Source: Dictyostelium discoideum
Lineage: Eukaryota
Direction: 5' to 3'
Length of the DNA: 64,000 nucleotides
Assembly: GCA_000004695.1 (NCBI GenBank)
Contig: CM000151.3
Span: 256,001 to 320,000 of the forward strand
Each line of letters opens with the position of its first letter. Position 1 is the first letter of the stretch. Below are positions 29,190 to 63,490 of the stretch, piece after piece. The notes under the pieces were generated by a model. It did not search any database and was not told the origin of the DNA. It worked only from the letters and a program-made list of their open reading frames with translations. A program made the translations under genes and the position numbers.

Positions 29190-29297
29190 ATGTTAACAAA
29201 TAAACAAATAAAAACAGATAACAATAAAATATTTCAAGATATTATTGATTTTGAAATATTAAAATCAATAATCAATTATTTATTAATTAGCAAAAAT

Positions 29298-29345
<48 letters not shown>

Positions 29346-31112
29346 AGTAATCAATATAAAATTAGTAAATTTTATTTAAATAGAAATGAAATATTAAATT
29401 ATATATTAGTTTCAAAAAAGTGGTATAATTTTTTATCATTAACAATATCAAATAATTTTATTAATAATAAATCATTTGAACATTGGTTAAACATTGATAA
29501 AAATAATAATAAATCATTTATTGAAAATTATAATAATCAAAATCAATATGATAAAAATAATTTAATTTATAAAAACAAAGATAATAAACAAAATAAAATT
29601 AGTTATAATAAGGAATTTTCAATTATAAAAATCAAAGAATCAATAATCAATGATTATTTTAAATTCAATTTATTTTTAAATAGTATTACAGTTGATGAAT
29701 TTACAGAAATTAAAAATAAATTTGAAAATAATCAATTACTTTATAATAGAATTATAGTTAATCTAGAAACTAGTTATGATGCGGATGTTACTCTATTTAT
29801 AATACATGAATATCTCTCAAATGAAAACTCAGAAATCATATCAAATTTATTTAAAATATTAGAATTAAATTATAATTTTTTGTTGCCTGGAGGTAATAGT
29901 CCAAATTTAGAAGAGGAGGAGGATGATACTGATGATGAAGGTAATAATGAAGGTACTGAATTATATTTTAATAATTTATCAATTTCTAGTTATAATGAAA
30001 ATGTAGTTGAAGATAGAGAAACAGTAATGATATTTAAAATTTTTAAAGGCAAAAATTTAATTTATAAAAGATCTCAAGTTGATTATGATTATCCAACACA
30101 TATGAATTATTCAGAATTATTTGATCCAGATAATTCTGGTCAACAAGTTGAATCGATTAAAGTAATAATTGAAACTGATGGTAATGGAGAGTCTGTTGAA
30201 GCACGTCATTTAATCAAAGTTAATCAATTTGAAAATTTACATTCAATTACAATACCAATTTATTCATTTCAAATATTATCAAACTTATCTGAAGAAATAG
30301 GATTTTTTGTGTTCTATCGTAATAATGCAGAATTTGGTAATTCAGGTACTTCAGAAAATATGAAATCAGAATTAATTCAAATGATTAATTCATTCGTTAC
30401 AAGTAAATCTTTAAAGAATTTAAATATATCATCAGTAAATTCAAACTACTCAATTAGTTATAAAGATTATGCTAGTTATGATGGTGATCATGAAATTTTG
30501 GCTAATAATATAAATGAAAATATAGAATCATTTTCAAATTGTTTTAAACCATTATTTTCAGAATTAAATACATCAATTGAAAGAATTGGATTTGATTGTT
30601 GTGGTTTATTAAAAATCAATACATTTTCAAATTTATTAAATAATAAATCAATTAAATATTTATATTTAAATAATTGTGATTTCATTGTTCACTCACCAAA
30701 ACCAATTGATAGTGATTTACATAAAGAACCAATTTCAATTAATAAATATTTATTTGATAATATATTTTCATCACCATTAACATCAATTAGACATTATAAA
30801 ATTAATATCAAAAAATTGAAACAATTAAAATTCATATTTAATTTAATATTAAATAATATTTTTAAATTACAATTATATTCATTAATATTCGAATTCAGTC
30901 AAAACGAATTAATTGGTGAATTTTTTAAAGAACTTAAAAATTTAATAAATAATATTTCAACACAGCAACAACAACAACAACAACAACAAAAAATATCAAA
31001 TAACATAAATTTAAAAGAAATTAAAATTAAAATTAAAGATGATGAACACATTCAAGAATTAAATAATATTAATAATCCATATTTTGCAACAGTGATAAAG
31101 AAAATAGCTTGA
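29190..31112 (+). CDS. Tandem-family paralogue (640 aa). (AAT)n-encoded poly-N near the N-terminus; polyQ9 near the C-terminus.
   Basis: Intact ORF. Upstream motif aacattagttagactcactcttaataattttaataaataata. Confidence 0.85.
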
Positions 31113-31399
31113 TTATGGTTATGTTTATTAGAAAAAAAAACCAAAGTACTTAAATAGCTCAAAAACCAAACATTTCAGAAATTCTTATTTTAGAAAAAAA
31201 AAAAAATAAAAAAAAAAAAGAATAAAAAAAAAAATAAAAAAAAGGATATATGTATTTATAGATCTTAATTATACAAATAATAAAATTATCTTATTTTAAT
31301 ACCTATTTTTTTTTTGATAATCCGAAAAAAAAATAAGAGTTCTATTATTTTATTTTTTTTTTTTTTTTTTTTTTTTTTTAGTTTCGAGAAACTAAATGT

Positions 31400-32060
31400 G
31401 GAAGTGAATCTGTGTCTTCTTATTTAACGATTATTGATAAAGAGTGAGTACATGCATTTGAAGTTTTACCACCACCACCACTACTACTTGATTTACCTCC
31501 AGTAGTTAAAGTTTTACCACCACGGCCACTACTTGATTTACCGTCAGTAGTTGATGCTGAATGGAAAGTTGATGGATGTGGACCAGTAGTGGTTGATGAT
31601 GTAGTATGAGTAGTTGAAGATTGAATAGATACCAAATGATGAGAGTGCGCTATTAATTTGAACAATGTAATTGAAAACTACTAAAACAAAGTAAGTTGAA
31701 TCTCAGGTAAGTGGCATAATAGTTTGAACGTGGTGGTATTGTGTAAAGAAAATCGTTGACATAGTAACCTTTTTCTTTTCTTCTTTTTCTTCTTTTTCTT
31801 CTTTTTCTTTGGTGTACACAGGGTCATAGGTTCCCCGTCATTTTTTGAAAATGGGGCCTATCCCCTTAAAATAAAAAACTATATGCTAAAATTTATCTCT
31901 TTTTATATCCAATGTTGATTTAATATTATCTACGAAATGCTTATCTAACCAATAGATACCTGCTTTTTCATTTCTAATTGTACCAAGATTAAATTGAGTC
32001 AGTGAAATGTTTTGAATTGTACCTAATGAATCTTTATTATTATTATTATCTCTATTAAAA
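31400..32060 (-). repeat. Composite S/T-rich unit, copy 1. Minus-strand S/T/G-rich ORF 31420..31665, a conserved 5' module with ATGTCAACGAT... first-exon-like segment and GTAAGT motifs (31640-31770), (TTCTTC)n, then a ~200-bp module GGTGTACACAGGGTCATAGGTTCCCCGTCATTTTTTGAAAATGGGGCCTATCCCCTTAAAATAAAA... (31808-31990).
   Basis: The same multi-part unit recurs at 36745-37330, 37545-38220, 43510-43625 (truncated) and, inverted, at 63190-63490. Confidence 0.5.
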
Positions 32061-32164
32061 TAAAAATAAATTAAAAAAAAAAAATGAAAAAAAAAATGAA
32101 AAAAAAAAAAATGAAAAAAAAAAAAAATTAAAAAAAAAAGGGTTTTTTTTTTTTTTATTTTAAT

Positions 32165-32380
32165 TATTTTAAAGTAATTTCATTGTTTACTCATCAAAAC
32201 CTATTGATAATAGTAAAGGTCTTGGTGGTGGTGGTGGTGGTCGATTACATAAAGAACCTATTTTAATTTATTAATATTTATTTGATAATATTTTCATCAC
32301 CATTAACATCAATTAGATATTATAAAATTTAATATCTATAGTCCAAAACTATTAATAATCCATATTTCACAATAATATTA
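32165..32380 (+). pseudogene. Short degenerate 3' fragment of a family gene
   Basis: ...FIVYSSKPIDNSKGLGGGGGGRLHKEPILIY-stop..FDNIFITININ-stop-ILNNPYFTIIL. Frames are broken. Confidence 0.6.
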
Positions 32381-32431
32381 TGAAAAAATAAAAATTAATT
32401 ATTATCCAAAAAAAAAAAAAAAAAAAATTTA

Positions 32432-32472
32432 ACATTGGTCAAACCCACTCTTTATAATTTAAACAAATAATA
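32432..32472 (+). promoter_or_regulatory. Family-conserved upstream motif (aacattggtcaaacccactctttataatttaaacaaataata)
   Basis: Alignment across paralogues. Confidence 0.6.
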
Positions 32473-34452
32473 ATGTCAACAAGTAAAAAAATTAAAACAG
32501 ATAATAATAATAAAATATTTCAAGATGTTATTGATTTTGAAATTTTAAAATCTATTATCAATTATTTATTAATCAGTAAAAAAAATAATAAAAATAATAA
32601 TACTATTAATCAATATAAAATTAGTAAATTTTATTTAAATAGAAATGAAATATTAAATTATATATTAGTTTCAAAAAAGTGGTATAATTTTATATCATTA
32701 ACAATATCAAATAATATTATTAATAATAAATCATTTGAACATTGGTTAGAAATTAATTATAATAAAAATAAATCATTTACTGAAAATTATAATAATCAAA
32801 ATCAATATGATAAAAATAATTTAGTTTTTTATAGTAAAGATGATGGTGAATTCTATGTACATAAACATAATAATATTAGTTTTAATAAAGAGTTTTCAAT
32901 TATAAAAATCAAAGAATCAATAATCAATGATTATCTCAAAAACAATTTATTTTTAGATAAAATTACAATTGATGATTTTAAAGAAATTAAAAATAAATTT
33001 GAAAATAATCAATTACTTTATAATAGAATTGTAGTTAATTTTTGTCGTAATAATGATGATACACAAATGACAACATATAAATATGGTGAAGTTCATTATT
33101 TTAAAGATCAATATAAAATTTTATTTAAAATACATGAATATGTATCAAATGAAAATTCAGAAACCATATCAAATTTATTTAAAGTGTTAGAATTAAATCA
33201 TGATTTTGAGTTGGATAAAATTTATAATCCAAAATCTGAAAAGGATAATAAAGGTAATAAGAAACCTACTACTGAATTATATTTAAATAGTTTATCAATT
33301 GTTGGTTATGATTGGAGTAAAGATGAGGATGATGATGAAGAAACAGTAAAGATATTCAAAATTTTCAAAGGTAAGAATTTAATTTATGATGGTTCCGATA
33401 TTCAGCATGAAATTTCAACACATGTCAATTATTCAGCATTATTTGACCCAGATAACTCAGGTCAACAAGTTGAATCAATTAAAGTAAAAAGTGAACGTGG
33501 TAATGATGAGTATGTCGAAGCACGTCATTTAATTAAAATTAATCAATTTGAAAATTTACATTCAATTACAATACCAATTAATTCATTTCAAATATTATCA
33601 AACTTATCCGATGATAAAATGGTATTTTATCAGTTTCATAGATATGATACAGATCCAGACAATTCAGATAATATGAAATCAGAATTAAATCAAATGATCA
33701 ATTCACTCATCACATGTAAATCTTTAAAGAATTTAAAAATACTATGTGTAAATTCAAAAAACTATTCAATTGATTTTGAAAGATTGGTTGGTGGTGATAA
33801 AGTTTCGCCTTATGAAATAAATAAAACTATAGAATCATTTTCAAATTCATTTAAACCATTATTTTCAGAATTAAATTCATCAATTGAAAGAATTGAATTT
33901 GATTGTATGGGTTTATTAAATATCAATACATTTTCAAATTTATTAAATAATAAATCAATTAAATATTTATATTTATATGATGATAGTGATTTCTTTGTTT
34001 ACTCTTCAAAAGCAAGTGATAATGGTGGTGGTAATGAATTACATAAAGAACCTATTTCAATTAATCAATATTTACTTGAGAATATTTTTTCATCACCATT
34101 AACATCAATCAGGCATTATAGAATTTGTTTCAGAGAATCAAAACAATTAAAATTCATATTTAATTTAATATTAAATAATATTTTTAAATTACATTTATAT
34201 TCATTAATATTTGAATTCTGTGAAAACGAAATAGTTGGTGAATTTGTTAAAGAATATAAAAATTTAATAAATAATATTTCAACACAACAACAACAACAAG
34301 AAGAACAACAAAAATCAAACAACATCAATTTAAAAGAAATTAAAATTAAAATTATAACTCCATTTGAATATGAAGAATATATTCAAGAATTGAATAATAT
34401 TAATAATCCATATTTCGCAACAGTAATAAAGAAAATAATTACTGATTGTTAG
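32473..34452 (+). CDS. Tandem-family paralogue (659 aa)
   Basis: Intact ORF. Upstream motif aacattggtcaaacccactctttataatttaaacaaataata (32432-32472). Confidence 0.85.
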   Translation: MSTSKKIKTDNNNKIFQDVIDFEILKSIINYLLISKKNNKNNNTINQYKISKFYLNRNEILNYILVSKKWYNFISLTISNNIINNKSFEHWLEINYNKNKSFTENYNNQNQYDKNNLVFYSKDDGEFYVHKHNNISFNKEFSIIKIKESIINDYLKNNLFLDKITIDDFKEIKNKFENNQLLYNRIVVNFCRNNDDTQMTTYKYGEVHYFKDQYKILFKIHEYVSNENSETISNLFKVLELNHDFELDKIYNPKSEKDNKGNKKPTTELYLNSLSIVGYDWSKDEDDDEETVKIFKIFKGKNLIYDGSDIQHEISTHVNYSALFDPDNSGQQVESIKVKSERGNDEYVEARHLIKINQFENLHSITIPINSFQILSNLSDDKMVFYQFHRYDTDPDNSDNMKSELNQMINSLITCKSLKNLKILCVNSKNYSIDFERLVGGDKVSPYEINKTIESFSNSFKPLFSELNSSIERIEFDCMGLLNINTFSNLLNNKSIKYLYLYDDSDFFVYSSKASDNGGGNELHKEPISINQYLLENIFSSPLTSIRHYRICFRESKQLKFIFNLILNNIFKLHLYSLIFEFCENEIVGEFVKEYKNLINNISTQQQQQEEQQKSNNINLKEIKIKIITPFEYEEYIQELNNINNPYFATVIKKIITDC

Positions 34453-35214
34453 AAAATAAAAAATAAAAAATAAAAAAAAAAACAAAAAAAAATATTTCTA
34501 ATATTAATACATGTATGCATAGAGTTTTTATTCTAACATTCAATTTTTGTTTTTGGCGAAGTGTTAAATTAAAATACTTATAGGCTATCTCTTTGATGAA
34601 AGGAATTGTTATCCTTCTCTTGCCAAGTTTGTTTTAATTATAATACTATTGGAATGTGAAGATAGTGATAAATTATTATATGGTAGCAGTGATTTTGGAA
34701 TATGGAGATGATGGTGATAATAAAGATTTTTGGTTGAAAAAGATGGTGAAACTTTGTGAAGTTGTTGATAGATCTTTTAAACCTAAACTTTGCATATTGG
34801 AATAGCTGATGTTATTGAACAAAATACATTACCTCTAAAACCAAATAATTATGTTTGAACCACCAAATAAACTAGTTCCAAAGCTTGAAATTGTAAATAA
34901 TAGACCACCAATTGGTTGAGTTGAATCACATAGAAATCCACCATAGTAGTTGTTGATTGATGAGCCATGAGTAAATTGGTAGATGCCAATTCGAAGATGC
35001 TCCACTAGGTGATTATTGTATTGAAGCGAACAATTCCCAAGTGATACATATCAAGCAGTTAATACATCATCAGATTCACCATTCTCTTCAGACAATTCAA
35101 TTGTTAAATCATGTTTCAGGAACATTAGATTATCAAAACTTAGGTTTATCAACATTCTATGAAATTGGTACCATTGTTTGGATTGATTCAAATAACAATG
35201 ATAAATTCGAACAA

Positions 35215-35400
35215 CCACGTGATTGTCCCATGCCAAAATTATCATATTAATTTCAGCAGCCATATTAATTTTGGCATGGGACTTATGTCTGCCAAAATTA
35301 CCGTATTAATTTCAGCATGTACATAGCAGCCAAAATTAATAAGGTAATTTTGGCATAGAAAAAAAAAAAAGTCAAAGTCATTTAATTAATAATCATCTCA
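35215..35400. repeat. MITE-like palindromic repeat, partial copy (hairpin core CCCATGCCAAAATTATCATATTAATTTCAGCAGCCATATTAATTTTGGCATGGGAC)
   Basis: Same family as 35960-36420, 43680-43885, 47440-47580 and 51690-52150. Confidence 0.6.
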
Positions 35401-35884
35401 AATATAAACAAAATTTTAGTACTAAAATTATTATTATTATTTTTATTATAATAATTATAATAAAAAAAAAAAAAAAAAAATTTCATATTATTTTATTTAT
35501 ATCTTTTATTTATTTTTATCTTTTTATTTTTATTATTAATTTTATAATTTATTTTCATTTCTTTTTTTTAGTTGATGTATATTTTTTTATTATTCATTTA
35601 TGTCTACGTTCTAATAAAAAAAATATACACAAAAAAAAAAAAAATTAAAAATAAAAAAAAAAATAAATTGAAGGCACTCATATACTGTCTTCCCAAATAA
35701 CATGTTTTTCAATGTTTTTATACAAATCAGAATTATTTTAAAATAAATTTATGGGATTCTTTTTTTTGTTAATCAAGCAAAATAACGCAGGTATCTCAAT
35801 CAGTCACTTTTCTAAATATTAATTTTTTATTATTAAATCATTATATAATTAAATTAATTAAAATAATTAAAAAAAAAATAAAAA

Positions 35885-35920
<36 letters not shown>

Positions 35921-35959
35921 GAATGAAATGGAATAAAATAAATTAAAAAAAAGAAATAC

Positions 35960-36420
35960 AGAAATTAAAGAAACTTATTTCGAAATTGTTTAAACAATCA
36001 TACAGTTTAAAATTAAATAAATTGTTTTAAACCACCACTTTTTTTGAACACATGAAAATAAATAAGAAATAAAAATAAAAAGATAAAAAAAGATTTGTTT
36101 TTATTTTTTTTTATTTTATAATTATTCTTGTCGTCAGTATTGTTACTATTAATTAATCCCATGAGTTTTTTATTATTATTATTTTTAATTCTTTTATATT
36201 TGAGATGATTATTATTAATTAAATGACTTTGAGTTTTTTTTTTTATTTTTCTATGCCCAAAATTACCATATTAATTTCAGCCTAAAATAGGTGGTCTGTG
36301 CATGCCAAAATTAATATGGCTGCTGAAATTAATATGGTAATTCTAGCAGACATAAGTCCCATGCCAAAATTATCATATTAATTTCAGCAGCCATATTAAT
36401 TTTGGCATGGGACACGTGAT
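35960..36420. repeat. MITE-like palindromic repeat, full copy (~460 bp): conserved arm ...ttataattattcttgtcgtcagtattgttactattaattaatcccatgag...atttgagatgattattattaattaaatgactttgag... followed by a nested long hairpin of CCATGCCAAAATTA.CATATTAATTTCAGC units
   Basis: Near-identical to 51690-52150. Non-coding and strongly self-complementary. Confidence 0.65.
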
Positions 36421-36744
36421 ATCGGAAAATCACATGCATCAATTACATTAACCAACAATGGCAATGGTGAAACATCAACAATTCCAACAGATGTTGATGG
36501 AGCAGTAGTGGTTGATGATTACAAATTTTTATCCGTTAATTGTGGTTATAAAGTGTTTTTAATTTCAAATATTATATATAAAAAAAATAAAATTTTAAAA
36601 AAAACCAATTTGTAAAATACATTATAAAAAACAAATAATAATTATGTAACTATATGTAAAATAAACTTTTCAAATAAATAATATTAAAAATTATAGAAAG
36701 AAATTTTTAAGTTATCAATTTTCATTATTTTTTTTTTTACTGAA

Positions 36745-37330
36745 TTTGGTGTACACAGGATCATAGGTTCCCCCGTCATTTTTTGAAAATGGGGCACATC
36801 CCCTTAAAATAAAAAACTAAATGCTAAAAGTTATCTATTTTTATATCTAATTTCGAATTAATATTATCGAGGAAATCTGTGAATGCTAATCTAACCAACA
36901 GATACCTGCTTTTTCATTTCTATCAACATTGAATCTACTACAGATATTGATATTATTATTATTTAATTTTTGTGAAAGAAATGTCACGGAGGTGAACCTG
37001 TTTCTTCTTATTTGATTCTATACTTCTTAGTTGATAAAGAGTGTGGACCTGTAGTTTAAGTTAGTAGGTAGTGGTGGTAAAACTTGATGGCATCGTGTAA
37101 AGGATGATACAGTATGAGTGGTTGTTGATGCAGAACGAGTTGAAGCCTTTGTCAAAGTTGTGTATATCAAATGATGCGAATACTCTATTAGTTTGAACGA
37201 TGCTATTGTAAACTACTAAATCAGTGTAAGCTGTACATTTGGTAAGTGGCGTAATAATTGAACTTTGTGACATTGTGTAAAAGAGATCGTTGACATAGTG
37301 ACCTTGTGGTGTGAGGGTTCATTTGATTTT
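36745..37330 (-). repeat. Composite S/T-rich unit, copy 2: GGTGTACACAGGATCATAGG... module at 36748-36960, S/T ORF body at 37040-37150, conserved 5' module with ATGTCAACGATCTC... at 37190-37310
   Basis: Alignment to 31400-32060. ORF 37061..37273(-) is an off-frame artefact of the same region. Confidence 0.5.
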
Positions 37331-37544
37331 GTATAGAGCAAAGCCATACTAATAATACATTGTGGTGTGAGGGTCAATTGAGTTGGAAATTAATTTGTTT
37401 TATTATCGAACCTGATGCTTTCTACTATTAACACTACTTCTGGATTTAGTGTGATACCTATCCACTTTTACTATTACAATTACATGAAGTTCATGATAAT
37501 TTTAGGTTTTTTGATTTTGCTGATGGATATTGATGATCTTCTTC

Positions 37545-38220
37545 TTTGGTGAACACAGGATCATAGGTTCCCCGTCATTTTTTGAAAATGGGGCCCATCC
37601 CCTTAAAATAAAACCATATGCTAAAATTTATCCCTTTTTACATCCAATGTTGAATTAATTATCGAGGAAATAGGTGACCTGCTTTTCATTTCTATCTTCT
37701 GCTATGTATCAAAATTGTACCAAGATTAAATTGATCACTTGGGTTTCTATTGTTGTTTGGTGCTGACAGAAACCATTAAATCAGATTGTTGATCCGTTTT
37801 ATCTCTTCTTTACCACCACCAATACTTGATTTGCCGCAAGTAGTTTATGGTGCACCATGAGTAGCTGATGGAACAGTAGTGGTTGATGATGCAAAATGAG
37901 AAGTTAATGGACCAATAGAAGTTGATGGTGTTGCATGAGTAGTTGATGGACCAGTGGAAGTTGATGATGTAACATGAGTAGTTGGTGAATCAATGGAAGT
38001 TGATGATACAGTATGAGTATTTGATGGACCAGTGGAAGTTGATGATGTAACATGAGTAGTTGATCTACTACTACCACTACTACCACTACAACTACTGCTA
38101 CTATTAATACTAATACTAATACTATTACTAATACTAATACTAATACTAATACTAATACTAATACTAATACTAATTCTACTATCTTTACTATTCATTCCAA
38201 TTGGTGTTATCATCTGAAGT
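37545..38220 (-). repeat. Composite S/T-rich unit, copy 3. Module at 37548-37740. The minus ORF 37845..38213 encodes 12-aa S/T repeats (TTHVTSSTSTGPS) and begins in a (TACTAA)n microsatellite (ISISIS).
   Basis: Alignment to copies 1 and 2. Microsatellite at 38105-38175. Confidence 0.5.
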
Positions 38221-38764: not shown

Positions 38765-40618
38765 ATGTCAACAAATAAAAAAATAAAAACAGATAATAAT
38801 AATAAAATATTTCAAGATATTATTGATTTTGAAATTTTAAAATCTATAATCGATTATTTATTAACCAGCAAAAAAAATAAAAATAATAATAATATTAATA
38901 ATAATCAATATATAATTAAAAAATTTTATTTATATAGAGATGAAATATTAAATTATATATTAGTTTCAAAAAAGTGGTATAATTTTATATCATTTACAAT
39001 ATCAAATAATATTATTAATAATAAACTATTTGAACATTGGTTAAAAACTAATTTTAGTAATAATTCATTTATTGAAAATTATAATAATCAAAATCAATAT
39101 GATAAAAATAATTTAATTTATAATAACATAGAAGATAAACAATATAAAATTAGTTTTAATAAAGAATTTTCAATTATAAAAATCAAAGAATCAATAATCA
39201 ATGATTATTTTAAATTCAATTTATTTTTAGATCATTTTACGATTGACGATGATTTTAAAGAAATTAAAAATAAATTTGAAAAAAATCAATTACTTTATCA
39301 TAGAATTGTAGTTAGTGTTGATACTGATAATTATGGGTTTCCTAGTGATATTTTATTTACAATACATGAATATGTATCAAATGAAAATTCAGAAATCATA
39401 TCAAATTTATTTAAAATATTAGAATTAAATTTTGATTTTTGGTTGGATTACGGATATTGTCCACGTTCTGAAGAGGAGGATGATGAAGGTAATAAAAAAT
39501 GTAGAGAAATATATTTAAATAATTTATCAATTGCTGGTTATAATAGAGAAGTAGGTGAAGATGAAGAAACATTAAAGATATTCAAAATTTTCAAAAGTAA
39601 AAATATAATTTATGATGGATCCAATATTGATGAAAGTGATACTCCAACACATATCGATTATTCAACATTATTCGATCCAGATAATTCAGGTCAACAAGTT
39701 GAATCAATTAAAGTAAAAAATGAATATGGTAATGAAGCACGTCATTTAATCAAACTTAATCAATTTAAAAATTTACATTCAATTACAATACCAATTAATT
39801 CATTTCAAATATTATCAAACTTATCTGAAGAAATGGGATTTTGTAAGTTATATCGTACGATATATTCAGGTGATTCAGATAATATGAAATCAGAATTAAA
39901 TCAAATGATTAATTCATTCATTACAAATAAATCTTTAAAGTATTTAAATATATCATCTGTAAATTCAATATACACTCTTCCAATTAAAAATTATGATGGA
40001 GGTTATCATGAAATTTTTTTTAATAAAATAAATAAAACTATAGAATCATATTCAAATTCATTTAAACCATTATTTTCAGAATTAAATACATCGATTGAAA
40101 GAATTGAATTTGATTGTATGGGTTTATTAAATAATAAATCAATTAAATATTTATATTTATATGATAGTGATTTCATTGTTTATTCATCAAAACAAAAAGG
40201 TAATGTTAGTGGTATTCGATTACATAAAGAACATATTTCAATTAATCAATATTTATTTGATAATATATTTTCATCACCATTAACATCAATTAGACATTAT
40301 AAAATTAAATTCATAGAATTAAATCAAATCAAATTCTTATTTAATTTAATATTAAATAATATTTTTAAATTACAATTATATTCATTAATATTTGAATTCA
40401 ATGATAGCGAATTAATTGGTGAATTTGTTAAAGAATTTAAAAACTTAATAAATAATATTTCAACACAAGAACAACAAAAATCAAATAACATAAATTTAAA
40501 AGAAATTAAGATTAAAATTCAAGATGTTAATATTGATAAATATATTCAAGAATTAAATAATATTAACAATCCATATTTTACAACAATAATAAAGAAAAAA
40601 GCTAATAATGATGATTAA
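38765..40618 (+). CDS. Tandem-family paralogue (617 aa)
   Basis: Intact ORF. Upstream motif tatcagacactctttataatttaaacaaataata (38733-38764). Confidence 0.85.
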   Translation: MSTNKKIKTDNNNKIFQDIIDFEILKSIIDYLLTSKKNKNNNNINNNQYIIKKFYLYRDEILNYILVSKKWYNFISFTISNNIINNKLFEHWLKTNFSNNSFIENYNNQNQYDKNNLIYNNIEDKQYKISFNKEFSIIKIKESIINDYFKFNLFLDHFTIDDDFKEIKNKFEKNQLLYHRIVVSVDTDNYGFPSDILFTIHEYVSNENSEIISNLFKILELNFDFWLDYGYCPRSEEEDDEGNKKCREIYLNNLSIAGYNREVGEDEETLKIFKIFKSKNIIYDGSNIDESDTPTHIDYSTLFDPDNSGQQVESIKVKNEYGNEARHLIKLNQFKNLHSITIPINSFQILSNLSEEMGFCKLYRTIYSGDSDNMKSELNQMINSFITNKSLKYLNISSVNSIYTLPIKNYDGGYHEIFFNKINKTIESYSNSFKPLFSELNTSIERIEFDCMGLLNNKSIKYLYLYDSDFIVYSSKQKGNVSGIRLHKEHISINQYLFDNIFSSPLTSIRHYKIKFIELNQIKFLFNLILNNIFKLQLYSLIFEFNDSELIGEFVKEFKNLINNISTQEQQKSNNINLKEIKIKIQDVNIDKYIQELNNINNPYFTTIIKKKANNDD

Positions 40619-41662: not shown

Positions 41663-43516
41663 ATGTCAACAAATAAAAAAATAAAAACAGATAATAATAA
41701 AAAAATATTTCAAGATATTATTGATTTTGAAATTTTAAGATCAATAATTAATTATTTATTAATCAGCAAAAAAAATAAAAATAATAATAATAATACTAGT
41801 AATCAATATAAAATTAATAAATTTTATTTAAATAGAGATGAAATATTAAATTATATATTAGTTTCAAAAAAGTGGTATAATTTTATATCATTAACAATAT
41901 CAAATAGTATTATTAATAATAAATTATTTGAACATTGGTTAAAAATTAATTATAATAATAAATCATTTATTGAAAATTTTAATAATCAAAATCAATATGA
42001 TAAAAATAATTTAATTTCTAAAAACAAAAAATATAAACAAAATAAAATTAGTTTTAATAAAGAGTTTTCAATTATAAAAATCAAAGAATCAATAATCAAT
42101 GATTATTTTAAATTCAATTTTTTTTTAGATTATATTACAATTGATGATTTTAAAGAAATTAAAAATAAATTTGAAAATAATCAATTACTTTATAATAGAA
42201 TTGTAGTTAATGGTAGTTATGAAGGGGAAGTTTTATTTGGAATACATGAATATTTATCAAATGAAAATTCAGGAGTTATTTTAAATTTATTTAAAATATT
42301 AGAATTAAATCATGCTTTTAATTTATATTATAAACCAAAATCTGAAGAGAAGGATGAGGAGGATGGTCATGATGATAAAGGTAATAAGAAATGTACTGAA
42401 ATATATTTAAATAGTTTATCAGTTTTTGGTTTTGATGAAGGTGAGGGTGAAGTTCAAACATTAAAGATATTCAAAGTTTTCAAAGGTAAAAATTTAGTTT
42501 ATGATGGATCTGAAGAAGATCCTGATTTTCAAACACATATCAATTACTCTGCATTATTTGATCCAGATAGCTCAGGTCAACAAGTTGAATCGATTCAAGT
42601 ACAAAATAAATATGATAATGAAGAGTCAGTCGAAGCACGTCATTTAATCAAAGTTAATCAATTTAAAAATTTACATTCAATTATAATACCAATTAATTCA
42701 TTTCAAATATTATCAAACTTATCTAAAGAAATGGGATTTATTAGTTCCCATGGTTATGAAGAATATTCAGGAAATTCAGAAAATATGAAATCAGAATTAA
42801 ATCAAATGATCAATTCAATCGTTACAAGTAAATCTTTAAAGAATTTAAAAATAACATCTGTAAATTCAATATATTATCCAATTGATTACAAAGCTTTTTA
42901 TGATGGTGATCTTGAAACCCTTACTAATAAAGTAAATGAAACTATAGAATCATTTTCAAATTCATTTAAACCATTATTTTCAGAATTAAATACATCAATT
43001 GAAAGAATTGAATTTGATTGTATGGGTTTATTAAATATCAATACATTTTCAAATTTATTAAATAATAAATCAATTAAATATTTATATTTATATAATAGTG
43101 ATTTCATTGTTTTTTCACCTAAAAAAAGAGGTGGTCCATTTCATAGAGAACCTATTTCAATTAATCAATATTTATTTGATAATATATTTTCATCACCATT
43201 AACATCAATTAGACATTATAAAATTAAATTCATAAAATCAAATGAATTAAAATTCATATTTAATTTAATATTAAATAATATTTTTAAATTACAATTATAT
43301 TCATTAATATTTGAATTCAATGAAAACGAATTAATTGGTGAATTTTTTAAAGAATATAAAAATTTAAAAAATAATATTTCAACACAACAACAAAAATCAA
43401 ATAACATAAATTTAAAAGAAATTAAAATTAAAATTAAAGATGATGAATATATTCAAGAATTAAATAATATTAATATTCCATATTTCACCACAACATTAAT
43501 AAAGAAAATAACCTAA
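41663..43516 (+). CDS. Tandem-family paralogue (617 aa)
   Basis: Intact ORF. Upstream motif cgcgcactctttataatttaaaaaaataata (41635-41662). Confidence 0.85.
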   Translation: MSTNKKIKTDNNKKIFQDIIDFEILRSIINYLLISKKNKNNNNNTSNQYKINKFYLNRDEILNYILVSKKWYNFISLTISNSIINNKLFEHWLKINYNNKSFIENFNNQNQYDKNNLISKNKKYKQNKISFNKEFSIIKIKESIINDYFKFNFFLDYITIDDFKEIKNKFENNQLLYNRIVVNGSYEGEVLFGIHEYLSNENSGVILNLFKILELNHAFNLYYKPKSEEKDEEDGHDDKGNKKCTEIYLNSLSVFGFDEGEGEVQTLKIFKVFKGKNLVYDGSEEDPDFQTHINYSALFDPDSSGQQVESIQVQNKYDNEESVEARHLIKVNQFKNLHSIIIPINSFQILSNLSKEMGFISSHGYEEYSGNSENMKSELNQMINSIVTSKSLKNLKITSVNSIYYPIDYKAFYDGDLETLTNKVNETIESFSNSFKPLFSELNTSIERIEFDCMGLLNINTFSNLLNNKSIKYLYLYNSDFIVFSPKKRGGPFHREPISINQYLFDNIFSSPLTSIRHYKIKFIKSNELKFIFNLILNNIFKLQLYSLIFEFNENELIGEFFKEYKNLKNNISTQQQKSNNINLKEIKIKIKDDEYIQELNNINIPYFTTTLIKKIT

Positions 43517-43625
43517 AATTTAGGTGGTGTAATAGTTGAACGTGATGACATCGTGTAAAGGGGATCGTTGGCATAATAACCTACTAAATTTGGTGAACAC
43601 AGGATCATAGGTTTACTATAAACAA
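43510..43625 (-). repeat. Truncated composite S/T unit (5' module ATGCCAACGATCCCCTTTACACGATGTCATCACGTTCAAC... plus the start of the GGTGAACACAGGATCATAGG module)
   Basis: Alignment to 31700-31830 and 37250-37570. Confidence 0.45.
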
Positions 43626-43679
43626 ACATATAAAGAAATAAAAGATAAAAATAAAATGATATAAGATTTTTTTTTTTTT

Positions 43680-43885
43680 TTTTTTTTTTATTATTATTAT
43701 TATTGTAATAAAAAAAAAATAATAATTTTAGTACTAAAATTTTTTTAGTAATTTTAGTAACAGTTAATTAATCCCATGAGTTTCTATTTGTTTATATTTG
43801 AGATGATTATTAATTAAATGACTTTGACTTTTTTCTTTTTTCTATGCCAAAATTACCATATTAATTTCAGCATATACATAGCTGC
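43680..43885. repeat. MITE-like palindromic repeat, partial copy
   Basis: ...agtaacagttaattaatcccatgagtttctatttgtttatatttgagatgattattaattaaatgactttgac...ctatgccaaaattaccatattaatttcagc. Confidence 0.55.
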
Positions 43886-43936: not shown

Positions 43937-44050
43937 CTATTTCTTTATTACTGTTGTGAAATATGGAATATTAATATTATTTATTTCTTGAATATATTCA
44001 TTATCATTAGTTTCAATTTTAATTTCTTTTAAAGTAATGTTATTTGATTT

Positions 44051-44126
<76 letters not shown>

Positions 44127-45916
44127 ATTGAAATATTATTTATTAAATTTTTAAATTCTTTAACAAAATCACAAACTAATTCGTTTTTATTGAATTCAAA
44201 TATTAATGAATATAATTGTAATTTAAAAATATTATTTAATATTAAATTAAATATGAATTTTAATTGATTTAATTCATTCAATTTAATTTTATAATGTCTA
44301 ATTGATGTTAATGGTGATGAAAATATATTATCAAATAAATATTGATTAATTGAAATAGGTTCTTGATGTAATTCATTACCGCTATAACTTGGTTTTGAAG
44401 AGTAAACAATGAAATCACTACCATATAAATATAAATATTTAATTGATTTATTATTTAATAAATTTGAAAATGTATTGATATTTAATAAACCACAACAATC
44501 AAATTCAATTCTTTCAATTGATGTATTTAATTCTGAAAATAATGGTTTAAATGAATTTGAAAATGATTCTATAGTTTCGTTTATTTTATTAGCAAAAATT
44601 TCATGATCAGCTCCCTTACAATCACGATAATATAAACCTTCATAATCAATTGGAGAATATTTTGAACTTACTGATGAGATATTTAAATTCTTTAAAGATT
44701 TACTTGTAATAAATGAATTGATCATTTGATTTAATTCTGTATTAATATTTTCAGAGTTACCCGATTCTGATTTACTATTATAAAATCTAATAAATCCCAT
44801 ATCCTCAGATAAGTTTGATAATATTTGAAAAGAGCTAATTGGTATTGTAATTGAATGTAAATTTTCAAATTGATTAACTTTGGCTAAATGGAGAGGTTCA
44901 ACAAATTCATCATTATCAGGTTCAATTTGTACTTTAATTGATTCAACTTGTTGACCTGAATTATCTGGATCAAATAATGCTGAATAATTGACATGTGTAG
45001 GCATATCACTACAAGTATCAGATCCATCATAAAATATATTTCTACCTTTGAAAATTTTGAATATCTTTACTGTTTCTTCATCATTACCTACTTCTCCATC
45101 AAAACCTGCAATTGATAAATTATTTAAATATAATTCAGTACATTTCTTACCACCTTTATCAGTATCATGATCACCTTCCTCCTCTTCAGAGTTTGGGCTA
45201 TAACCATTATCCAAACAAAAATCAATATTTAATTCTAATATTTTAAATAATTTTGATATGACTTCTGAATTTTCATTTGATACATATTCATGTATTCTAA
45301 ATAAAGTTGTTTTATTATTATTACTATCATAATCAGCATCAACATTAACTACAATTCTATTATAAAGTAATTGATTATTTTCAAATTTATTTTTAATTTC
45401 TTTAAAATCATCAATTGTAATCTTATATAAAAATAAATTGATTTTAAAATAATCATTGATTATTGATTCTTTGATTTTTATAATTGAAAACTCTTTATTA
45501 AAACTAATTTTATTTTGTTGATAATTATAATCTTCATCTTTAAAAATTAAATTATTTTTATCATATTGATTTTGATTATTATAATTTTCAATAAATGATT
45601 TATTTTTATTATTATAATTAATTTTTAACCAATGTTCAAATAATTTATTATCAATAATATTATTTGATATTGTTAATGATATAAAATTATACCACTTTTT
45701 TGAAACTAATATATAATTTAATATTTCATTTCTATAAAAATAAAATTTATTAATTTTATATATATTAATAGTATTATTATTTAAATTATTATTTTTATTT
45801 TTATTTTTTTTGCTAGTTAATAAATAGTTGATTATAGATTTTAAAATTTCAAAATCAATAATATCTTGAAATATTTTATTGTTATTATTTGTTTTTATTT
45901 TTTTACTTGTTGACAT
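43937..45916 (-). CDS. Tandem-family paralogue (659 aa), the only inverted member. (CAA)n-encoded polyQ of ~37 residues.
   Basis: Intact ORF on the minus strand. Family upstream motif in reverse at 45917-45955 (...cattattatttgttaacatgatatgttaagagtgagtttg). Confidence 0.85.
44051..44126 (-). repeat. (CAA)n trinucleotide microsatellite encoding polyQ (shown as (TTG)n on the plus strand)
   Basis: Direct read. The homologous polyQ in other paralogues ranges from 3 to 12 Q. Confidence 0.9.
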
Positions 45917-51698: not shown

Positions 51699-52150
51699 TT
51701 CGAAATGTTTAAACAATCATACAGTTTAAAATTAAATAAATTGTTTTAAACCACCACTTTTTTTGAACACATGAAAATAAATAAGATATAAAAATAATAA
51801 GATAAAAAAAGATTTTTTTTTTTTTTTTTTTTTATTTTATAATTATTCTTGTCGTCAGTATTGTTACTATAATTAATCCCATGAGTTTTTTTTATTATTA
51901 TTTTTAATTCTTTTATATTTGAGATGATTATTATTAATTAAATGACTTTGAGTTTTTTTTTTTATTTTTCTATGCCCAAAATTACCATATTAATTTCAGC
52001 AGCCATATTAATTTCAGCCTAAAATAGTTGGTCTGTGCATGCCAAAATTAATATGGCTGCTGAAATTAATATGGTAATTCTAGCAGACATAAGTCCCATG
52101 CCAAAATTACCATATTAATTTCAGCAGCCATATTAATTTTGGCATGGGAC
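51690..52150. repeat. MITE-like palindromic repeat, full copy (near-identical to 35960-36420)
   Basis: Shared arm ...aaacaatcatacagtttaaaattaaataaattgttttaaaccaccactttttttgaacacatgaaaataaataag... plus nested CCATGCCAAAATTACCATATTAATTTCAGC hairpins. Confidence 0.65.
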
Positions 52151-58120: not shown

Positions 58121-58872
58121 CATCACAGCAAAGAAAAAACCACCTTTAAATTCGCTTTAAATTAAATTTAAATTTGCTTTAAAGTCCTGAATTAAAGCAA
58201 TTTTAAAGGTAATTTTTAAGGTTACTTTAAAATCACCTTAAAAATTACCTTTAAAATTACCTTTAAAATTACCTTTTTAATGGCTTTAAAAGCGAGGTCC
58301 TGAGTTCGAATCCGTTATTTAACGGATAAATTTTTTAAAATTTTTTTTTTAATTTTTCAAAAATTACCCAAAAGGGATTCGATCCCCCGACCCTCTATCA
58401 AAGGGTAGTCTCATCAACCATTACACCATTTGATTGCTTTGATGAAAAATTTAAAAATGATAGAATATTTTATCCCCATTTTTTTGTGCTAAAATTAGAT
58501 CTTTTTTATTAAAAATCTTAAATTTATGTTTAAAGGAAATTTAAATTCACTTTAAATCTACTTTTAATCTACTTTAAATCCTATTTAAAATTAATTTAAA
58601 ATAAATTTTAAAGGTATTTTTAAATATCTTAAAAATTATCTTAAAAATTACCTTAAAAATCACCTTTAAAATCACCTTTAAAATCACCTTTAAAATTGCT
58701 TAAAAATTTATTTTAAAGCAAATTTTAAAGGCATTTTTAAATATCTTAAAAATTACCTTAAAAATTACCTTAAAAATGAATTTTTTAAACGCGGCTTTAA
58801 ATTCAATTTAAATCCAATTTAAATCAACTTTTCTTTAAATTTGCTTTAAAGGTGCATTTTTCTTTGCTGTGA
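58121..58872. repeat. 760-bp TIR-bounded MITE-like repeat, copy A. 17-bp termini ATCACAGCAAAGAAAAA / TTTTTCTTTGCTGTGAT. (TTAAAGG/TTACC)n-rich. Contains tRNA-like debris (GGTCCTGAGTTCGAATCC; and, on the minus strand, ATGGTGTAATGGTT D-arm-like plus ACCCT-TTGATAG-AGGGT anticodon-stem-like).
   Basis: ~95% identical to 59689..60450. Lies between the integrase catalytic and C-terminal exons. Confidence 0.6.
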
Positions 58873-59692
58873 TATCGATAATTTATATTGTTCACAATAT
58901 CATACTCTTGTTGTTTTAATTTTGAGATCCTCTCCTTGATAGTTCGATTCAATCTTTCTACCATACCTTGAGTTGTTGGTGTACGAGGAGCTCCATGTGC
59001 TGACTTGGAGCCTGGAAAAAGTTTTAGGAATTCTTTTTGGACTTTGTTTTTAAATTCACGTCCATTATCGCAGTGCCATACTTTCACAGGTTTGCCAAAG
59101 TACGTGAGAGCCAAAAAATTGTATATGGGAACTGTTCTCTTTGTTGTCAAACATCTAAAAAATAAATGATAATTAAAATAAAAAAAGAAAACTAATAAAT
59201 TAATAAATAAAAAATAAATACCTTCCAGTAGCAAATTTTGTAAAAGAATCTATGCATAGAATAATGTAAACAACATCGGTGTCGTACGGTTGTACAGAGT
59301 CATATTGGATAAGATCATCTAGTTTAGTTAGTATCTTTTCATTATCATCATCGTATGTAACTTTTTCTTTATGTTCACCTTTAATTGATGTTAAATCATA
59401 AACCAATCTTGAGTATTCCTCGGTATCTACAATTGGAGCAAAATCCTTTGTTATACCTATTAATTTATTTAAATTATTAAAAGAGTTTTAATATAAAAGT
59501 TACAAAACATCATATAAAAATGATTGATACCAAACCTTTTATTCTATTTCGTTGGCAAATGTCACACGTATCTACTGCATCAGATACAAAAGAATACAAT
59601 CCCATATTATAATATTTAGTCTTGTAGTTCCCATAGGTTGCATCTCTTCCTATATGACCTTTATGCATTTCTTCCCAGAGTGATACCATCAC
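58824..59692 (-). CDS. Integrase-like transposase, N-terminal and catalytic exons (HHCC zinc-binding motif, then DD35E-type core), split over three overlapping ORFs, implying introns or frameshifts
   Basis: H-x3-H...C-x2-C in ORF 59510..59692. D..D(NG)..E signature WHCDNGREF and QGMVERLNRTIK in ORF 58824..59234. Confidence 0.6.
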
Positions 59693-60450
59693 AGCGAAGA
59701 AAAAACCACCTTTAAATTCGCTTTAAATTAAATTTAAATTTGCTTTAAAGTCCTGAATTAAAGCAATTTTAAAGGTAATTTTAAAGGTAATTTTTAAGGT
59801 TACTTTAAAATCACCTTATTTAATATTTATTTATAGGCTTATCATTTAAGCTGAAGGGTTATTTTAATGGCTTTAAAAGCGAGGTCCTGAGTTCGAAGCC
59901 GTTATTTAACGGATAAATTTTTTAAAATTTTTTTTTAATTTTTCAAAAATTACCAAAAGGGATTCGATCCCCCGACCCTCTATCAAAGGGTAGTCTCATC
60001 AACCATTACACCATTTGATTGCTTTGATGAAAAATTTAAAAATGATAGAATATTTTATCCCCATTTTTTTGTTCTAAAATTAGATCTTTTTTATTAAAAA
60101 CCTTAAATTTATGTTTAAAGGAAATTTAAATTCACTTTAAATCTACTTTAAATCTACTTTAAATCCTATTTAAAATTAATTTAAAATAAATTTTAAAGGT
60201 ATTTTTAAATATCTTAAAAATTATCTTAAAAATTACCTTAAAAATCACCTTTAAAATCACCTTTAAAATCACCTTTAAAATTGCTTAAAAATTTATTTTA
60301 AAGCAAATTTTAAAGGCATTTTTAAATATCTTAAAAATTACCTTAAAAATTACCTTAAAAATGAATTTTTTAAACGCGGCTTTAAATTCAATTTAAATCC
60401 AATTTAAATCAACTTTTCTTTAAATTTGCTTTAAAGGTGCATTTTTCTTT
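59689..60450. repeat. 760-bp TIR-bounded MITE-like repeat, copy B
   Basis: Same termini (ATCACAGCGAAGAAAAAAA...TTTTTCTTTGCTGTGAT) and same tRNA-like segment. Lies upstream of the integrase start. Confidence 0.6.
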
Positions 60451-60743
60451 GCTGTGATTCTATAATCATTAATTACTTCTAAACACACTTCTTTTGATAT
60501 ATTTCTATCTCCGCCACAATTCATGACTTTTTTTTCAATTCTAAATAATTTTTCTTTTCTGTTTCTGTTTTTTATTGGTCAGAATTTAAAAAATGATTGT
60601 GTTATTGTAAGGAAAAATATTTACTCATCATGTAAAAATTTATAATTTTTATGTTTAGTATTTTCAAAATTATTATCTTCAATAAATTTTAAATAATTTA
60701 TAATTTCATTTATTTTATCTTGTTTCATTTTGGGAAAATGAAA

Positions 60744-63189: not shown

Positions 63190-63490
63190 AAAACAATCTT
63201 GATGCTGAATCAATTTTTAAACCAATTAAACATAAAATTCATTCAACAGGTAAACCAACTACCCATGCCGTACCATCAACCACAACTGCTCCATCAACTA
63301 CTGGTGCTGAATCATCAGCCCCTACTGGTTCATCAACTACTCTTGCTGTATTACCATCACCACTACTGTACCATCAACCACAACTGCTCCATCAACTACT
63401 GTTTCACAAACTACTCATGCTGTATTACCATCACCACTACTGGTTCATCAACCACCCATGCTACACCATCCACCACTAGTGACTAACCAA
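63190..63490 (+). repeat. S/T-rich 12-aa repeat segment of the composite unit, inverted orientation (TTHAVPSTTTAPSTTGAESSAPTGSSTT...)
   Basis: Reverse-complement similarity to 37845-38060 and 31455-31640. Confidence 0.4.

Follow-up and report, generated by a model that had tools for sequence, protein, structure and literature searches.

A composite serine/threonine-rich repeat in a Dictyostelium discoideum gene array probably consists of decaying gene-like cassettes with a conserved non-coding core

What is the composite repeat that occurs in several copies between positions 31400 and 38220 of a 64,000-nt stretch of Dictyostelium discoideum chromosome 2 (contig CM000151.3, positions 256,001 to 320,000; this whole stretch is called the window below)? 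In this repeat, non-coding modules are joined to a body with reading frames rich in serine and threonine (S/T body). A preliminary description, made from the letters alone, had counted three units and some fragments and had offered two explanations, a small multi-exon gene family with strongly conserved untranslated regions and first exon, or a retroposon-like repeat. Our analysis suggests that the units are probably copies of a small lineage-restricted gene-like cassette, that is, a decaying orphan transcription unit with a promoter and leader module under constraint. The surroundings of these units are given by the dominant feature of the window (G+C 16-30%), a tandem array of ~11-13 paralogous genes for proteins of ~640 aa, which share ~85% nucleotide identity.

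Every unit lies on the minus strand and keeps the order a (upstream module), b, c (the S/T body) and d. A full unit consists of an upstream part of module a (aUp), a 105-nt core (a-core), a variable purine-rich linker, b, c, d and an A-rich tail with AATAAA. Comparison of the 64 kb with itself recovered module a in three copies (31808-31976, 36745-36922 and 37545-37677) with 87-90% identity (blastn E 1e-41 to 1e-58) and module b at 31629-31771 and 37164-37305 with 79% identity, a third and partial b being located in a stump at 43521-43582. The S/T bodies were ~70% alike in this self-comparison, and flank d was common to units 1 and 2 at ~72% identity. No additional copy in the window came out of a more sensitive nhmmer search. 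The composite repeat with its copies of a, b and d and its stump was thereby confirmed, while the boundaries of its units had to be redrawn. Unit 1 is a single complete unit that runs from 32049 down to ~31390 and is followed by a 32-nt A-run. The other two proposed units form one head-to-tail pair, composed of c3 (38213-37780), a3, a 240-nt spacer, b2-c2-d2 and a2; the region 36745-37330, described as one unit, is really the a module of one unit plus d-c-b of the next. Unit 3 possesses neither b nor d. A spacer of like type between a and b was also found at about 19550 in L004, one of the loci from other assemblies introduced below. The stump, which had been placed near 43510-43625, is present at 43520-43613 and contains b plus the last ~30 nt of a. 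Its b side directly adjoins the stop codon of family gene 41663-43516, and on its a side it is cut off by a remnant (43640-43880, resembling 36150-36290) of the DNA transposon thug-S. Because thug-S truncates the a-core of the stump, it was inserted after the cassette was already there.

An alignment of 21 copies from the window and from loci of other strains revealed a sharply better conserved core of 105-106 nt, TTGGATATAAAAAGAGATAAATTTTAGCATATAGTTTTTTATTTTAAGGGGATAGGCCCCATTTTCAAAAAATGACGGGGAACCTATGACCCTGTGTACACCAAAG, within module a. The conservation previously ascribed to ~200 bp of this module is, in its strong form, confined to the core. Mean pairwise identity, computed segment by segment on the same 69 copy pairs, is highest in the a-core (0.915), followed by aUp (0.83), b (0.80), the 5' part of c (0.71) and d (0.57). 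The family genes adjoining the units, with ~85% identity, rank below the a-core. Its features are nearly invariant in sequence and order, namely a TATA box (TATAAAAAG), 21 nt, a T-run (TTTTTTATTTT) and AAGGGG. Downstream of the T-run lies a 46-nt imperfect palindrome with ~16 possible base pairs in the predicted fold; across 19 copies, 25 of the 55 columns of the hairpin do not vary, and a 37-mer of the core, CCCCATTTTCAAAAAATGACGGGGAACCTATGACCCT, is invariant as well. The less conserved aUp holds the conserved motif ATGAAAAAGCAG/GTATCT plus a WGATAR-like TAGATAAG.

In RNA polymerase II (Pol II) promoters of Dictyostelium, an oligo(dT) run is expected ~30-40 nt before the start site. Kimmel and Firtel are said to have described in 1983 a Dictyostelium core promoter made of a TATA box and then an oligo(dT) stretch before the cap site. 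The a-core likewise contains a TATA box and then a T-run and agrees in its sequence features with such a core promoter, from which the start is predicted. It differs in that its most invariant part is the palindrome past the T-run, which is no generic promoter feature. Since the layout of TATA box and T-run is combined with the highest conservation in the unit, the a-core is most likely a promoter and leader module with a cis-regulatory role under constraint. The anatomy of the cassette would then be that of a Pol II transcription unit of ~500 nt with TATA box, T-run, leader, body and AATAAA, in which the a-core would supply the core promoter plus the first ~60 nt of the transcript, able to fold as a 46-nt imperfect hairpin. 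The S/T body would represent an orphan open reading frame (ORF) or the body of a non-coding transcript, with little or no selection at the protein level.

Several other identities were considered for the core and its surroundings. With Rfam 15 at gathering threshold, mir-7131 was the single family matched in the whole window, each time in thug-S hairpins, and a permissive Rfam scan of 31300-32150 gave chance-level matches only, with E above 2. An exact-pattern scan of contigs from metagenomes and prokaryotic genomes with an invariant 33-mer yielded zero matches, as expected. A small peptide encoded in the a-core, MKKQ/HIVFYFKGIGPIFKK, was ruled out by indels of 2, 4 and 20 nt among the copies. 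Origin of GGTTCCCCGTC from a tRNA or its B-box was rejected by eye, and a tRNA scan found none in the window. The Dictyostelium upstream sequence element (DUSE), a promoter motif of non-coding RNAs with the consensus [AT]CCCA[CT]AA, is not present according to a reading by eye. A C/D-box small nucleolar RNA on the plus strand of c was rejected as well; the snoR09 match was weak and the C box is not kept in unit 2. There was no support for piggyBac-like TTAA/GGG ends or for terminal repeats of the core.

How the units spread was followed in loci of 20 kb from four other assemblies, which were picked via their ~640-aa family proteins and scanned with the modules. This choice through the family proteins biases the sample toward the array; three loci, L008, L009 and L010, are located outside it. 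The window and L003 to L007, covering five strains, contain 21 a-cores (18 outside the window), 15 b segments and ~20 S/T bodies. All units of the window, L003, L004 and L005 are located in spacers between family genes and on the opposite strand. Single units and array ends have a at the start and d at the finish without exception, and since arrays begin with a and end with d, module a marks the upstream end of the unit. Head-to-tail pairs of copies are common. Within the sampled loci, every unit in which a is joined to b, c or d belongs to the array of the ~640-aa family, and outside the main array only short c/d remnants beside dispersed family genes (L008, L009) and a lone a-core (L008, L010) were encountered.

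The most informative comparison is that of window positions 31064-32137 with L005 8279-9391, which form one unbroken alignment with 84.7% identity over 1145 nt. It runs from the coding end of the family gene via the spacer, the A-run, d, c, b and a and further. Because the alignment passes through the A-run to the family gene, the A-run is an internal, shared feature, and the cassette was copied within a larger block. Homology is thus continuous with the flanking array, as in a segmental duplicate, and position and orientation are consistent with this with one exception in L006. To judge from these alignments, the copies evidently arose by tandem or segmental duplication and unequal crossing-over alongside the ~640-aa family. 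The cassette is situated downstream of family members, usually in antisense to them, and was multiplied together with them. In this respect the cassette resembles the tandem, strain-variable array with companion pseudogenes formed by the DDB_G0271214/DDB_G0271412 family, of whose repeating block it is a part, and its number and integrity likewise vary among strains. In contrast, the cassette sequence is unrelated to the family genes, and a 105-nt non-coding piece exceeds the coding DNA of the family in conservation (0.92 versus ~0.85). Most copies are evidently decaying, as seen from frameshifts, internal deletions, truncation by a transposon and several 'solo a' derivatives, which resulted from deletion between the AAG-rich linker and AAGAAG in d.

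Does any copy of the cassette encode a protein? A search with the unit 1 peptide matched one protein, DDB_G0271410 of strain AX4 with 125 aa, which could be rebuilt exactly from the window exons 32194-32191, 32049-31934 and 31677-31420 on the minus strand. This model describes the same locus as unit 1 and gives the identical 125-aa product. It differs from the cassette in that it covers one unit only, turns a-core and b into an intron and needs a first exon of 4 nt. Its second intron of 256 nt begins with GTAGAT, has 31% G+C and spans the entire a-core and b. Most paralogues lack the GTAGAT donor, and the frame of exon 2 is altered by an 8-nt indel; DDB_G0271410 looks like an ab initio construct. 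At the sequence level, comparison with paralogues and other strains lends the model no support. Followed from the segment FKLIA(H/Y)SHHL as far as the stop codon of d, the S/T frame stays open in 2 out of 14 units (window unit 1 and L005 8914), whereas the remaining 12 are disrupted by frameshifts, by stops or by large deletions. The two intact copies differ from each other by 18.5 nonsynonymous versus 3.5 synonymous changes, corresponding to a ratio of the respective per-site proportions (pN/pS) of 1.8.

The b segment of unit 1 has an ATG at 31762-31760 (MSTIFFTQYHHVQTIMPLT, then a stop), followed by ACTTAC...TTTTAGTAG. This ATG opens an ORF of 19 codons in a frame different from that of the S/T ORF and is gone in the 'cf. 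discoideum' copies, and a transcript begun in the a-core would contain two earlier AUGs. As only 2 of the 14 frames are open, pN/pS is 1.8, the S/T ORF of unit 1 has no ATG, the b ATG is not kept and earlier AUGs precede the body, a protein-coding reading appears weak. At best, one or two copies may code for a fast-evolving low-complexity peptide. The gene family envisaged in the preliminary description therefore stands in part: the anatomy is that of a transcription unit and unit 1 is annotated, while a first exon ATGTCAACGAT spliced at GTAAGT is refuted by strand. The GTAAGT motifs at 31691 and 31708, which had been linked to the b ATG, are on the plus strand in antisense and cannot serve as splice donors for that ORF. 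The minus strand reads them as ACTTAC, just upstream of TTTTAG, and its only GT sites within b are GTCAAC, GTTCAA and GTTTTA. The exons of the AX4 model are different ones, and the b ATG is missing from the 'cf. discoideum' copies.

The S/T bodies themselves are less uniform than the 12-aa tandem repeat proposed for them. In the ORF of unit 3, an (ATTAGT)n microsatellite is combined with an S/T repeat of 39 nt in 5.7 copies, i.e. a period of 13 aa (Tandem Repeats Finder, TRF), and in the S/T body of units 1 and 2 no tandem array was detected with TRF at a score of at least 50. The 122-aa ORF of unit 3 has been called as a gene in assembly GCA_054883475.1 and has no protein homologue. The failure to assign the repeat to a known family was borne out, since no Pfam, Rfam or protein homologue besides the AX4 model was found. 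Beyond DDB_G0271410 itself, 5.8 billion proteins contained no homologue of the cassette proteins; the aUp peptide, compared by full HMMER with 1.84 billion representative proteins, retrieved the AX4 model only, plus two spurious repeat proteins, and the S/T ORFs had no Pfam match. A literature search on DDB_G0271410 and on Dictyostelium repeats brought up nothing relevant. In composition and in its short S/T/G repeats of variable length the cassette shares features with S/T-rich low-complexity surface or spore-coat proteins of Dictyostelium, of which PsA and SP96 are examples. It differs from these in the lack of detected homology and of a visible signal peptide, and in the disruption of most copies. 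The S/T part reported at 63190-63490 is indeed S/T-rich; it is on the plus strand, its similarity is marginal (nhmmer E 0.04-0.4), and its membership in the family appears doubtful.

Two further copies of the a-core were identified at unrelated loci of two strains, L008 10252-10344 (plus strand) and L010 2042-2127 (minus strand). The right half of their palindrome equals the array consensus over ~27-37 nt, with one C-to-T exchange in the loop of the L010 copy. In both loci the a-core is followed by an AT-rich element of ~640 nt, termed X, of which a third copy is present in L007, and the terminus of X is sharp at ...GATTTTCTTCGCTGTG in all three copies (L007, L008, L010). Inverted termini resembling the X end bound two elements of ~750 nt in the window, at 58125-58871 and 59690-60456, and an inverted partial X is located at 8905-9221 in L008. 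On account of these inverted termini, X very probably represents the terminal part of a family of DNA transposons. The two window elements are made of 12-nt subrepeats (TTTAAAATCACC / TTAAAAATTACC), and they are probably members of a DNA transposon family whose terminal inverted repeats (TIRs) are long and rich in subrepeats. With these copies, the a-core clearly appears as a discrete, reusable module in at least two sequence contexts, and it is possibly of transposon origin. In the array, homology extends from the a-core into the flanks on both sides, which argues for the presence of the core once in the ancestral unit and against repeated insertion. Like thug-S and the DDT-type elements with their long TIRs, non-autonomous DNA transposons of Dictyostelium, the cassette is tied to mobile DNA, in that its core lies inside two transposon-like elements and thug-S adjoins and cuts its units. 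Unlike these, the a-b-c-d unit spread in a larger block, and a reading by eye of the borders of the unit and of its 105-nt core, with no formal scan, showed no evident TIRs or target-site duplications (TSDs). Two tRNA genes are close to these elements, a tRNA-Val at L007 20388-20462 with an X end ~210 nt away and a tRNA-Leu at L008 13827-13908 near X and remnants of S/T units.

Several observations weigh against the reading of the units as a decaying transcription unit with a promoter and leader module. Pairing in the hairpin holds for 94% of cells with one compensatory change, and all measures are within the shuffle range, there being little variation. The higher identity of the a-core could in part reflect gene conversion, or arise because an island containing G+C is more readily aligned amid AT-rich DNA. 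The AX4 annotation puts the a-core and b in an intron. In L006, the unit at 5059-5318 comes after a family gene on the minus strand and shares its orientation, and no unit is found beside most family genes of the window. Transcription start, strand, splicing and polyadenylation are all inferred from sequence features, and the distribution of the a-core is that in the window and the sampled loci.

A retroposon or processed repeat, i.e. a reverse-transcribed transcript inserted repeatedly with the A-run as its poly(A) tail, is contradicted by the data and has next to no probability. As in short interspersed nuclear elements (SINEs) and processed retrogenes, unit 1 is short and its d is followed by a 32-nt A-run. 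The A-run (31348-31379) is, in contrast to these, internal to the duplicated block and common to copies, with homology extending past it to the 3' end of the neighbouring family gene, and the d end of unit 2 has none. Copies are not dispersed in the sampled loci; they reside in one array with fixed orientation where this was checked (window and three loci), often as tandem pairs, and they bring their own upstream promoter-like module. Inspection by eye, with no formal scan, showed no TSDs, only the AT-rich 7-mer TAATAGA being common to the flanks of unit 1, and copy boundaries are not discrete. A truly spliced coding family is unlikely as well. It would be spliced as in the AX4 model or as MKKQ/FSITLFKLIA... 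via the ATGAAAAAGCAG/GTATCT donor, its a-core and b would be intronic with a regulatory or RNA element, and its products would be small, S/T-rich, mucin-like and possibly secreted. The existing annotation, the conserved ACTTAC...TTTTAG(TAG) ahead of c, which resembles a branch point and acceptor, the position of ATGAAAAAGCAGGTATCT among the best conserved parts of aUp and the two copies with an open S/T frame of 85-106 codons would all fit. Such a family does not sit well with the 4-nt first exon and the 256-nt intron of 31% G+C demanded by the AX4 model, the donor and frame differences among paralogues, the broken frames and pN/pS, the lack of homologues and the absence of a convincing signal peptide, and the a-core is conserved even where flanking exons are missing ('solo a', L008, L010).

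Somewhat less improbable is that the a-core is a fragment of a DNA transposon family, or a small mobile module from one, which landed upstream of an ancestral S/T gene; its conservation would then result from a transposon-related function or from recent spread and not from regulation in the host. The copies inside two ~1-kb elements at unrelated loci of two strains, the sharp end of the X that follows, and the inverted X-like termini in the window and in L008 are in favor of this. On the other side are the homologous flanks in the array (aUp before the core, linker and b after it), which indicate a single ancestral presence, the lack of evident TIRs or TSDs at the core edges, an X copy in L007 without the core, and the number of just two non-array copies from loci that were chosen non-randomly. 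This origin is not exclusive of a promoter and leader function and is compatible with the decaying transcription unit that we prefer. A more specific and quite doubtful idea is that the a-core, as a conserved promoter plus structured leader, starts mostly non-coding transcripts that converge on the 3' ends of the fast-evolving ~640-aa family genes, resulting in control of the strain-variable array of an antisense or RNA interference (RNAi) type. In truncated copies, transcripts from the a-core would enter the family-gene 3' ends directly, which would fit the stump, where b directly meets a family-gene stop codon. The a-core would here have been recruited from, or be shared with, a DNA transposon.

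Table 1. Positions of cassette modules and related features in the window.
Feature	Position	Strand	Remarks
a-core of unit 1 (105-106 nt)	31807-31912	-	21-copy alignment, column identity mostly at least 90%
TATA box of unit 1 a-core	about 31899-31907	-	
46-nt imperfect palindrome GGGGATAGGCCCCATTTTCAAAAAATGACGGGGAACCTATGACCC	about 31820-31865	-	inside unit 1 a-core
aUp of unit 1 = exon 2 of DDB_G0271410	31934-32049	-	identity 0.83-0.84
First exon of DDB_G0271410, 4 nt (ATGA/GTAAAC)	32191-32194	-	gives the model its start codon; spliced rebuild = P0015
Purine-rich microsatellite linker (AAG/GAAAAA) between a and b	31776-31806	-	TRF, alignments; length differs among copies
Module b of unit 1	31678-31775	-	mean pairwise identity 0.79-0.80
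Module c of unit 1 = exon 3 of DDB_G0271410	31420-31677	-	85-codon S/T/G-rich ORF, no ATG
Module d of unit 1 (ORF end and 3' flank) with A-run 31348-31379	31348-31445	-	TRF
Unit 3 body	37842-38213	-	122-aa ORF 38213-37845; frame-shifted tail to ~37780
a3 (aUp fragment and a-core), upstream of b2	37546-37735	-	
Spacer, 240 nt, inserted between a3 and b2	37306-37545	-	short direct repeat TTGTGGTGTGAGGGT...
b2-c2-d2, degenerate	36979-37305	-	ATG at 37296 retained; S/T frame frameshifted
a2 (aUp and a-core), head-to-tail after d2	36746-36978	-	nothing recognisable beyond
Stump: last ~30 nt of a-core and b	43521-43613	-	
S/T-rich degenerate stretch (doubtful member)	63190-63490	+	blastn 64-71% identity; nhmmer E 0.04-0.4
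~640-aa family array	2017-63032		e.g. 29190-31112, 32473-34452, 38765-40618, 41663-43516; 43937-45916 (-)

ORFs of the window are identical to the AX4 proteins DDB_G0271214, DDB_G0271412 and DDB_G0271414, and contig JBTAPE010000001.1 of another D. discoideum assembly matches the window with 99.7% identity. A Dicty_CTDC repeat protein and a polyketide synthase are also encoded here according to a Pfam scan. Pfam assigns no domain to the ~640-aa family protein, and almost all of the 92 relatives that could be detected are labelled D. discoideum or 'cf. discoideum'. Copy number of this family is strongly strain-dependent, the members of one strain having locus tags across ~150 consecutive genes, and the paralogues share only ~65-80% protein identity. 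At 32200-32330, in the spacer upstream of the gene 32473-34452, a piece derived from the 3' portion of a family gene (see 34020-34120) marks a duplication junction. Short ORF fragments in both orientations occupy 34540-35225 and 36414-36560, between a family gene and a2; this mosaic, part of which is annotated as a 117-aa gene in one new assembly, looks like pseudogene debris. In its middle, at 35225-36413, lies a complete non-autonomous DNA transposon of the thug-S type with ~1.19 kb and nested TIRs (GTCCCATGCCAAAATT...), whose right arm is the Rfam mir-7131 hairpin 36311-36399. It breaks a plus-strand SdrD_B/colossin-like coding fragment (...VWIDSNNNDKFEQPRD/IGKSHASITL...) and is flanked on both sides by ACGTGAT, an apparent 7-bp TSD. 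A second mir-7131 hairpin at 52048-52136, found on both strands with 94-99 bits, marks a thug-S copy at ~51.9-52.2 kb.

The cassette repeat is real and is a largely ordinary product of tandem-array turnover, one copy of which was already annotated as a hypothetical gene. The locus is reinterpreted accordingly, from a fragile ab initio gene model to a member of a strain-variable, mostly dead cassette family. The palindromic a-core is the sole part worth follow-up, as it tops the neighbouring coding DNA in conservation and recurs in transposon-like elements. Should the a-core turn out to act as a promoter and leader from which convergent transcription starts, it would exemplify a module shared by transposons and host units and would be a candidate for the cis-regulation of a fast-changing gene array in Dictyostelium. 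Otherwise the locus would reflect ordinary genome turnover.

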